Source: a virus
DNA length: 64,000 bases
Virus record (IMG/VR): IMGVR_UViG_3300045988_159010
Strand: one strand, 5' to 3'
Every line of letters begins with the position of its first letter. Position 1 is the first letter of the stretch. Of the stretch, positions 41,600-42,794 are shown in pieces. The notes beneath the pieces were generated by a model. That model had not been told where the DNA came from. It saw only the letters and a list, made by a program, of their open reading frames with translations, and did not search any database. Position numbers and translations under genes: made by a program.

Positions 41600-41922
41600 A
41601 TATATTTAAACTACACATTAAGAATAAACAATAGTATGGTAGCTATGACCCGGTTTCATGGTCGCTTTACAGAATGGCAGTCAAAGGTTGTTATCCTTCG
41701 CCTAAAATCTCCATCCAAACCTCAAATGAGGGAAACATCTAAGCCGTATCATTCAGTTTTCCTGACTCATTTCGACTTGCGGATTTGTTACCTACCGCCG
41801 TACTACCTACTAACCTTTCTATGTTAGCCCCGACCCGTCTATTCAACTATCGTTAGCTACTATTGTTCAATGGTGCCGGTGGCGGGACTCGAACCCGCAT
41901 GGTGTTGCCACCGAGGGATTTT

Positions 41923-42660
41923 CTTGCTACTCTATGTCACCATAGCCACATTTCTGTGTTGTAGTCTGGAATACGTCTTTATCATATGCACGACTTGCAC
42001 TTAGATAGTTGGTATATACTCTCTACACATTTATTTGGAACAATTTTTTCCACGATAAGAAGAGGTTTTGGCATGACAATTTGGACATAATAATTGGAAA
42101 TTATCTAATTCATTATGAAAATGATTTCCATCTTTATGATGAAGTTCTAAAGGAATTGGGTCTCCTAACCATTCGGTTAATCCACAACATTCACATTTGT
42201 ACTCTTTATAACCTTCATCAAGAAGTTTTTTTCTTACTTTATTACTCTGTATATCAATACTTTTTTCCAAGTATTCTAACAAAGATAATTCATGTCCATT
42301 GGGTTTTGACAATCCTTTACAACCTTGATTTCCAGCATATTCAAGGCCAAGCTTTTTTAATACTGGATTAATTGTTTTAGGATTACAACCCAATTCTCTT
42401 GCCATTTGAGCTTTAGTCTTACCTTCAGTAATCCATTGCTCAATTTCTTCTTTGCGTTCTAAAATATCAGTTCTCATTTATATTACCTCTCTTTCATTAT
42501 TATTTAAAAATTAAAAGAGGCATTTTAATGAGTGTCGTCCAATTTTTTAGAATGTGTTCCAAAACTTAGCACGGCGTTCTCTTAGCCATTCACCGTTTTA
42601 GCCAACTTCTACTCTAAGAGTTTCCTCTTAGGCACTCCATTTTAACGTTTGCTAAGTCAA
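41923..42660 (-). mobile_element. group I intron in tRNA-Leu(UAA), carrying an HNH homing endonuclease ORF
   Basis: Inserted at the canonical U34/A35 site. The 5' exon ends in U and the intron ends in G (omega-G). It contains ORF 42031-42477. Confidence 0.6.
42031..42477 (-). CDS. HNH homing endonuclease (intron-encoded), with N-terminal HTH
   Basis: 148-aa ORF with HHKDGNHFHNELDNFQLLCPNCH. No TAG. Confidence 0.8.
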   Translation of the reverse strand: MRTDILERKEEIEQWITEGKTKAQMARELGCNPKTINPVLKKLGLEYAGNQGCKGLSKPNGHELSLLEYLEKSIDIQSNKVRKKLLDEGYKEYKCECCGLTEWLGDPIPLELHHKDGNHFHNELDNFQLLCPNCHAKTSSYRGKNCSK

Positions 42661-42794
42661 AAGTCCCTTGTGTCTACCATTCCACCACACCGGCAAATAA
42701 ACTATATTAATTAAATCAAGGCTCAATTTTGAAAAACAAGTAATTCATTTTAGGTGAACTTTCAAAAATAAATTTGCTGCGTGAGCCTTATGCT

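Follow-up and report, generated by a model that had tools for sequence, protein, structure and literature searches.

A split phage tRNA-Leu(UAA) gene with a probable group I intron of the cyanobacterial lineage

The split tRNA gene and its reading frame

We analysed a 64,000-nucleotide stretch of viral DNA (IMG/VR record IMGVR_UViG_3300045988_159010, hereafter the window), in which a tRNA-Leu(UAA) gene is interrupted in its anticodon loop by 738 nucleotides that contain a reading frame for an HNH endonuclease. The window has 29% G+C, its genes lie on the minus strand, and so do all features given below with window coordinates. The 34-nt 5' exon (42694-42661; GCCGGUGUGGUGGAAUGGUAGACACAAGGGACUU, ending in ...AGGGACUU) comprises the 5' strand of the acceptor stem, the D arm, the 5' strand of the anticodon stem, and C32, U33 and U34. 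The 52-nt 3' exon (41922-41871; AAAAUCCCUCGGUGGCAACACCAUGCGGGUUCGAGUCCCGCCACCGGCACCA, running from AAAAUCCCU to ...GGCACCA) comprises A35, A36, A37 and A38, the 3' strand of the anticodon stem, a long variable arm, the T arm, the 3' strand of the acceptor stem, A73 and an encoded CCA. Joined together, the exons are called by ARAGORN as a canonical tRNA-Leu(taa) of 86 nt, with the cloverleaf, long variable arm, UAA anticodon, discriminator A73 and encoded CCA of a bacterial type-II tRNA-Leu. The intervening sequence (42660-41923) starts with UUGACUUAGC, ends in ...GUAGCAAG and is inserted between U34 and A35; the 5' splice site thus follows a U, and the last intron nucleotide is a G. Such a split type-II tRNA-Leu(UAA), interrupted after U34 by a sequence ending in G, had been proposed in an earlier note made from the sequence alone, and the coordinates given there for the exons, the 738-nt intervening sequence and the reading frame are all correct on the minus strand. 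Default ARAGORN and the Rfam tRNA model both miss the split gene. When introns are permitted, ARAGORN does recover c[41871,42694], yet it assigns the wrong anticodon: UU ends the exon and UU also opens the intron, and this run of U leaves the 5' junction ambiguous.

The intron boundaries are confirmed independently by alleles that lack the intron. Searching for exact copies of the joined junction, we found it uninterrupted and identical in five IMG/VR contigs, namely L029 and four other viral contigs. Both flanks of the intron match L029 at ~95% identity (L029 1286-1422 corresponds to window 42798-42661, and L029 1423-2055 to window 41922-41279), and this contig joins position 42661 directly to 41922, the 738 nt being absent to the base. 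The intron is a presence/absence polymorphism between close relatives, and the tRNA-Leu resemblance of the two halves cannot be due to chance.

The reading frame within the intron (42031-42477) is intact from ATG to TAA, encodes 148 amino acids and is preceded by a Shine-Dalgarno-like GAGAGGU (42485-42491). Its product has an N-terminal helix-turn-helix and a C-terminal HNH motif of the form CxxC...HH..N..CxxCH (CECCG...ELHHKDGN...N...CPNCH), and it matches PHROG HNH endonuclease families with E values of 1.7e-26 and 8.3e-26, as expected from the intact HNH gene described in the earlier note. A PDB sequence search with the protein gave weak helix-turn-helix and McrA matches only. We found 2880 homologues at E<=1e-5; the best 120 of these 2880, which extend down to ~71% identity, are nearly all 147-149 aa long, and this conserved length argues for selection on an intact product. 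The stop codon of the reading frame abuts the conserved J6/7 segment of the intron core, and the last three sense codons form the 3' strand of the paired element P6 (42034-42042). The reading frame therefore lies wholly within the L6 loop, with P6 closing around it.

Fold of the intron, its relatives and alternative explanations

We searched for relatives of the intron in IMG/VR with a 27-mer across the 3' splice site, which gave 2 loci, and with a 20-mer from the 3' core, which gave 25 loci. In about 20 of these 25, a split tRNA-Leu(taa) is recovered when ARAGORN is run with introns permitted. The introns in this family measure 226, 229, 280, 303-378, 499, 738 and 801-896 nt. Their tRNA-Leu exons are quite different in sequence, yet still form a perfect tRNA in many diverged loci, which indicates that one intron family resides in many phage tRNA-Leu genes. 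A blastn search of GenBank phages with positions 41600-42950 matched the HNH reading frame alone and found no relative of the intron RNA there. One family member without a reading frame, L021 (229 nt), is recognized over the full model by Rfam Intron_gpI (61.5 bits against a gathering score of 50, E 5.9e-13), and the Rfam alignment assigns to it P1, P2, P3, P4, P5, P6, an R element (GUAGAGACUAUA), P8, an S element (AAGACAUAGUC) and P9. The window intron contains the same blocks in the same order.

We examined the fold by covariation. Full-length MAFFT alignment misaligned the copies with reading frames at other sites, and we thus trimmed reading frames and large loop inserts at sequence anchors. 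The resulting alignment A2 contains 19 distinct trimmed cores, with the structure written from the window row. Its first ~45 columns (exon, L1 and guide sequence) are still misaligned; P1 was therefore left uncounted on A2, and the pairing of L1 with L5 was analysed separately. Over the 49 pairs of P2 to P9, 96.5% of the cells are standard pairs, against 27-45% when the 3' partners are slid by 1-3 columns, a control that is somewhat flattering because the structure derives from one aligned sequence and from hand trimming. Independent of that bias are the compensatory changes, which are found on both sides in 29 of the 49 pairs. None of 500 shuffles reaches any of the five observed measures.

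The individual elements are as follows. P1 is formed by the last 4-7 nt of the 5' exon (GGGACUU, 42667-42661) and the internal guide sequence GAGUGCC (42631-42637), with ...ACUU pairing with GAGU (42637-42634), such that U34 (42661) faces the G of GAGU in a U.G wobble at the 5' splice site. The GAG of the guide is conserved in all aligned homologues, and Rfam places P1 at the equivalent position on L021. Beyond a G-G mismatch, the helix may be extended by one or two G-C pairs. P2 is a hairpin with a GAAA tetraloop (CUAAGAG-GAAA-CUCUUAG, 42631-42614), in which all 7 pairs show compensatory change. The long-range helix P3 (GUUGG/CCAAC, 42606-42602 and 42012-42008) spans the reading frame; 5/5 of its pairs covary and 100% of its cells are paired, with GGUGG/CCACC and GAUGG/CCAUC found elsewhere in the family. 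P4 (ACGGUG/CGCCGU, 42596-42591 and 42576-42571) encloses a 14-nt loop (AAUGGCUAAGAGAA), and P6 (UUUGGAACA/UGUUCCAAA, 42563-42555 and 42042-42034) covaries in 9/9 pairs across the family. The R element UAAAUGUGUAGA-GAGUAU (42033-42016) consists of J6/7 and the 5' strand of P7, and the S element AAGAC-GUAUUC (41976-41969) of J8/7 and the 3' strand. P7 itself (GAGUAU/GUAUUC, 42021-42016 and 41974-41969) is mostly invariant, with a C-G to G.U exchange in the window subgroup that involves changes on both strands; the R and S elements (GAGAGUAU and GUAUUCC) retain the outer G-C pair, the bulged A and the G-C pair that would bind guanosine. P8 (UAUC...GAUA, 42007-41977) has an outer stem in which 2 of 4 pairs covary and an inner stem, GUGCA/UGCAU, recognized by eye. 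In P9 (41964-41927), CUAC/GUAG encloses two hairpins, CACA-GAAA-UGUG and CUAUG-GUGA-CAUAG, both GNRA-capped; the P9 region extends to 41923 (41964-41923), where the terminal omega-G is invariant in A2. The window intron thus has the paired P3-P4-P6-P7-P8 core of group I introns, including the P3/P7 pseudoknot.

A local P5 hairpin capping P4, as found in the IC3 lineage, is absent from the window, which has the 14-nt P4 loop in its place. Here, the segment CUUAGC of L1 (intron nt 5-10, 42656-42651) is complementary to GCUAAG in the P4 terminal loop (42586-42581), a pairing that we term trans-P5. Complementarity between L1 and the P4 loop is present at the same positions in most relatives but with different sequences. 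These are CUUGGC/GCCAAG, CCUAAC/GUUAGG, CCUUAGU/ACUAAGG, UGUAUUC/GAAUACA, UGUUUGC/GCAAACA, UGUUCUU/AAGAACA, UCGUGG/CCACGA and UCAACUA/UAGUUGA. In an alignment of 12 sequences anchored on the splice site and P4 alone, all 7 trans-P5 pairs show compensatory change and 83.8% of the cells are paired; for trans-P5 and P4 together the value is 91.4%, against 24-45% in slid controls. When the L5 loops were reassigned among the sequences, the observed complementarity was reached in 0/10000 permutations. Family members without complementarity in L1 (L001, L004, L008, L018 and L021) have instead an 18-nt loop that folds as its own P5 hairpin. These comparisons indicate that P5 of the window intron is built in trans by the 5' end of the intron, an arrangement that may help to dock a very short P1. 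We did not meet it in the literature examined, in which no search was aimed at trans-P5.

The position of the endonuclease gene varies within the family. HNH genes are located in L6 in the window, L002 and L010, and in L1 in L001 and L017; L020 contains a LAGLIDADG_2 gene (E 1.7e-30) between P7 and P3'. The gene is an independent passenger of the intron. Its varied sites, together with the intron-less alleles, represent the usual signature of homing, and the window indeed combines an HNH reading frame inside a group I intron with the existence of intron-plus and intron-minus alleles.

Several relatives have further peculiarities. L008 (IMG/VR 3300033463_004585) carries the same intron in a tRNA that has the anticodon UAA but a short variable loop, unlike a type-II Leu body. 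Structured inserts of ~60-110 nt are found in peripheral loops of L010 (P9) and of L004, L016 and L019 as well as L008 and L013 (L6 or P9). The insert within P9 of L010 is a tRNA-like sequence, L004, L016 and L019 share the motif AAATGGAGTT(A/T)GA(T/A)GAACAGC, and L008 and L013 share a different insert. They might represent small, mobile RNA modules residing within the intron.

We consider it highly probable that a 738-nt group I intron splits the phage tRNA-Leu(UAA) gene between U34 and A35 and that it is of the same IC3-type lineage as the cyanobacterial and plastid intron. A group I intron had been proposed in the earlier note as well, and this reading is now supported by covariation over the 19 homologues, by the Rfam match on L021 and by homology to cyanobacterial introns. 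Judged by its sequence, the element would be a phage-borne intron of an already known group I kind, capable of splicing and homing. The pre-tRNA would be transcribed within the phage tRNA array, and the intron would fold into P1 (exon ...ACUU with guide GAGU and the U34.G wobble) and P2, into a P4-P6 domain with P5 made from intron nt 5-10 and the P4 loop and with P6 closing around the reading frame, and into a P3-P7-P8-P9 domain completing the fold. A free guanosine bound in P7 would attack after U34. The terminal G (41923) would then occupy the guanosine site and the 5' exon would attack the 3' splice site, and ligation of ...GGGACUU to AAAAUCCC would generate a mature tRNA reading UUA. The 148-aa HNH protein may cut or nick the intron-less tRNA-Leu gene of co-infecting relatives, and repair would copy the intron in.

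Several observations weigh against this interpretation. Rfam Intron_gpI, the search that the earlier note had named as a check and made part of its refuting condition, has no match in the window, either at the gathering threshold over the whole window or at E<=10 over positions 41600-42950. It is also negative on L003, a relative without a reading frame and of the same subtype as the window. The Pfam HNH score of the reading frame (18.7 bits) is just under the cut-off of 21.4 bits. P1 is short, with 4 contiguous pairs including the wobble before the G-G mismatch, and P7 of the window subgroup contains G.U pairs at positions that are C-G and U-A in other members of the family. Finally, the core alignment was trimmed by hand, with reading frames and large inserts cut out. 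We judge the Rfam result to be a false negative of the model, that is, a failure of sensitivity rather than a missing core, and attribute it to the 540-nt insert in L6 and the lack of a P5 hairpin.

The weak points of P1 and P7 could also be explained by a genuine group I intron that is not autonomous. Such an intron would depend on protein assistance, either from the HNH protein acting as a maturase or from a chaperone of the host or phage, or it would splice poorly and regulate or silence the tRNA gene, perhaps with an inactive endonuclease gene; a kinetically demanding trans-P5 would fit the same picture. However, the P7 variant seems to be tolerated, as it recurs in loci with different exons (L003, L005, L014 and L020); none of the invariant junction nucleotides has been lost, and the length of the reading frame is constant over many homologues. 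We thus regard a non-autonomous intron as unlikely. Another explanation is that a free-standing, T5-like HNH cassette landed in the anticodon loop and left a dead tRNA-Leu pseudogene that does not splice. The HNH reading frame does resemble the free-standing hegA and F-TflIV of T5, two further free-standing HNH reading frames are located in the tRNA array of the window, and Rfam gives no group I match there. A cassette of this kind would not account for the ~290 nt of non-coding flanks, which form a conserved, covarying group I core common to introns without reading frames, nor for the insertion site, U.G wobble and omega-G, which are exactly those of group I introns. In addition, the exons are still a perfect tRNA in many diverged loci, and UUA is the dominant leucine codon of the phage (59% of its Leu codons), so that the interrupted tRNA-Leu(UAA) is the one the phage needs most. 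A pseudogene is therefore very improbable.

Removal of the intron by proteins, with an endonuclease of the archaeal or eukaryal type and a ligase instead of RNA catalysis, deserves almost no credence: a tRNA-Gln in the window with a 66-nt insert that cannot be a group I intron indicates that another route may exist, but the tRNA-Leu insertion is at 34/35 and not at 37/38, no bulge-helix-bulge was seen at the junctions by eye (no formal search was made), and a complete covarying group I core would be unnecessary for enzymatic excision. The 3' half alone does look like a partial tRNA, and the earlier note had at first taken it for an isolated, attP-like fragment, but the two halves form a complete tRNA and are contiguous in relatives, which refutes the idea of an integration-site remnant with a coincidental match to the 34 nt upstream.

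Neighbouring elements and phage context

The tRNA array around the interrupted tRNA-Leu contains a second split gene, a tRNA-Gln(UUG) (45371-45508) with a 66-nt insert in its anticodon loop (45409-45474), without which the mature loop would read CUUUGAC. L007 (97.6% identical) and L027 both lack exactly these nucleotides. The insert is far below group I size and has a miniature tRNA-like fold, with an acceptor stem (CGUAAAU/AUUUACG) followed by A and CCA, a D-like arm, a stub hairpin (UCC-AAAA-GGA) and a T arm (AAUAG-UUCAAAU-CUAUU). Two scans of IMG/VR and a search of the window revealed no second copy. The insert weakly resembles Rfam SpF41_sRNA (E 0.09) and recalls the tRNA-like introns of Lak phages. 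One idea is that it might be removed by RNase P and 3' processing, followed by ligation.

Directly upstream of the tRNA-Leu lies a 917-nt cassette (42799-43715), in which an ORF (42875-43183) matches a PHROG HNH family over the C-terminal half of that family alone. The cassette also includes an odd tRNA-like gene, which has the anticodon CUA (42798-42869); it scores 38.9 bits with the Rfam tRNA model, is missed by ARAGORN and has the T-loop GGCAGCA. At the site of the cassette, L029 and L007 have a canonical amber-suppressor tRNA(CUA). The cassette thus looks like an endonuclease-linked swap of a suppressor tRNA. A free-standing HNH gene, which is a distant relative of the intron reading frame, is also found in the tRNA array (45902-46471; Pfam HNH 32.3 bits).

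Other structured RNAs accompany these genes. The CCA of tRNA-Leu is followed, 13 nt on, by the start of a RAGATH-33 RNA (41745-41857, 135 bits), which adjoins tRNA-Leu in L001 as well. A full-length ROOL RNA (44606-45198, 324 bits) lies inside the same tRNA array. The Y RNA-like family YrlA has a match below threshold (45568-45689; 26 bits against a gathering score of 69, E 0.002), with a tRNA-like module, immediately upstream of the split tRNA-Gln. At a distance from the array, the window encodes a major-vault-protein-like gene (30755-33238; MVP shoulder domain, E 6.9e-21, and a vault repeat) and a neighbouring DUF2828/DUF7788 gene (33817-35355), an uncommon combination for a phage with ROOL and a candidate Y RNA-like element as well.

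When TAG is read through, the minus-strand ORF content of the window (ORFs of at least 150 aa) rises from 9,737 to 16,659 codons. The in-frame TAGs are clustered in some long ORFs, for example 15 in the 1182-aa ORF at 37840-41388, and there are none in gyrase-like genes. In some relatives, the intron reading frame has an in-frame TAG at a position occupied by CAA in a homologue. The TAG codon has apparently been reassigned, Gln being the probable amino acid. A tblastn search of GenBank phages with the gyrase-B-like protein gave a best identity of <40%, indicating that the phage has no close cultured relative.

Relation to known introns

The intron of tRNA-Leu(UAA), known from textbooks as the 'oldest intron', is usually regarded as a relic that cyanobacteria and plastids inherited vertically and that does not move. 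A homologue that resides in a phage tRNA and carries a homing endonuclease gene provides a concrete vehicle for the horizontal spread of tRNA introns. Sister copies with different endonucleases at three positions, and intron-less alleles in near-identical genomes, bear on the same point. In large uncultured phages the intron family is common and, it appears, mobile. Tentatively, and with somewhat more doubt than confidence, we propose that a phage subfamily to which the window belongs has replaced the P5 hairpin with a pseudoknot of L1 (nt 4-10) and the P4 terminal loop that tethers a P1 of 3-4 bp to P4-P6, and that the endonuclease-armed copies in large gut and rumen phages are a mobile reservoir from which the tRNA-Leu(UAA) intron moves between bacterial phyla. 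Since standard tRNA finders and Rfam miss the split gene, phage tRNA repertoires are under-called. The relatives of 226 nt without reading frames and the trans-P5 variant are compact ribozymes fit for structural and engineering work. The finding is thus of interest for its evolutionary bearing, for its structural twist and for the blindness of standard annotation tools to the gene.

We compared the intron to mobile introns and endonucleases known from phages. The introns encoding I-HmuI in SPO1 and I-TwoI in Twort and the td, nrdB and sunY introns of T4 are likewise mobile group I introns with an endonuclease gene in a peripheral loop and with the end of the ORF overlapping the core, but they interrupt protein-coding genes. 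The SPO1, Twort and T4 introns are of the IA type, not IC3. According to a 2014 review, every group I intron known from phages at the time interrupted a protein gene, despite the many tRNA genes of phages (PMC3984707). We found no phage tRNA-Leu group I intron described in the literature searched, the coverage of which is incomplete. The statement of the earlier note that this insertion is rarely reported in phages thus holds for the literature searched but not for the sequence data, in which the family is common in large uncultured phages. The closest annotated relatives of the HNH reading frame among GenBank phages, hegA and F-TflIV of the T5 tRNA region, are 69-71% identical over ~200 nt and are also located in a phage tRNA array; in contrast to the window gene, they are free-standing and outside introns, and the C-terminal HNH part alone aligns. 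Lak megaphages contain 'enigmatic', unclassified tRNA introns that are conserved across cohorts and have presence/absence variants (Devoto et al., 10.1101/356790). These, however, are in tRNA-Phe, Gly, Thr and Tyr, and some are tRNA-like and resemble the 66-nt tRNA-Gln insert of the window more than its group I intron.

Bacterial counterparts were sought in a GTDB genome set with a pattern of the R and S elements (AGAGACT-N25-55-GGTAAAGASAKAGTCC), which occurs at no fewer than 120 loci. Among the matches listed, most are cyanobacterial tRNA-Leu(taa) genes whose introns, of 210-325 nt, share the position of the window intron; there are also tRNA introns from Bacteroidota, Planctomycetia, Patescibacteria, Omnitrophota, Clostridia and other groups among them. 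The closest 'bacterial' ones among those listed (Gastranaerophilales L118, Bacteroides L126, Anaeroplasmatales L147, and L036) lie on contigs with tRNA arrays that are phage-like by eye. L118, which is binned as Gastranaerophilales, seemed at first a possible chromosomal source, but its context (a tRNA array with ThyX-like and phosphoesterase ORFs, from motifs recognized by eye) appears phage-like. An mSystems 2026 survey of complete bacterial genomes reports an HNH gene in a group I intron that interrupts tRNA-Leu(UAA) in one Bacteroidota genome (PMC13011429). Compared by description only, that intron has the same tRNA, intron class and endonuclease family as ours; the survey covers complete bacterial genomes only, and phages are not discussed in it.

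The insertion site at U34|A35 is the same as in the cyanobacterial and plastid tRNA-Leu intron, as the earlier note had stated, and the window core is collinear, block for block, with the introns of Anabaena and other cyanobacteria. Identity in the core is 46-49% to cyanobacterial introns and 69-71% to other phage-type copies. We provisionally assign the window intron to IC3 on the basis of this homology and of the classification of cyanobacterial and Azoarcus introns in the relevant part of the literature (PMC3984707). The IC3 intron in tRNA-Leu of Anabaena/Nostoc PCC 7120 has, like the window intron, the U34|A35 site, a P1 with exon CUU and guide GAG, and a P2 with a GAAA tetraloop. P3, P4, P6, the R element (GUGYAGAGACU), P8, the S element (GGUAAAGA.A.AGUCC) and P9 are collinear, and both introns end in ...G|AAAAUCC. 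The cyanobacterial introns differ from that of the window in having a normal P5 hairpin of 25-30 nt, where the window has a 14-nt loop complementary to the 5' end of the intron. Moreover, those recovered here from cyanobacterial contigs, at 210-325 nt, are too short for a homing-endonuclease ORF, whereas the window intron contains an HNH gene, resides in a phage and is polymorphic for presence and absence.

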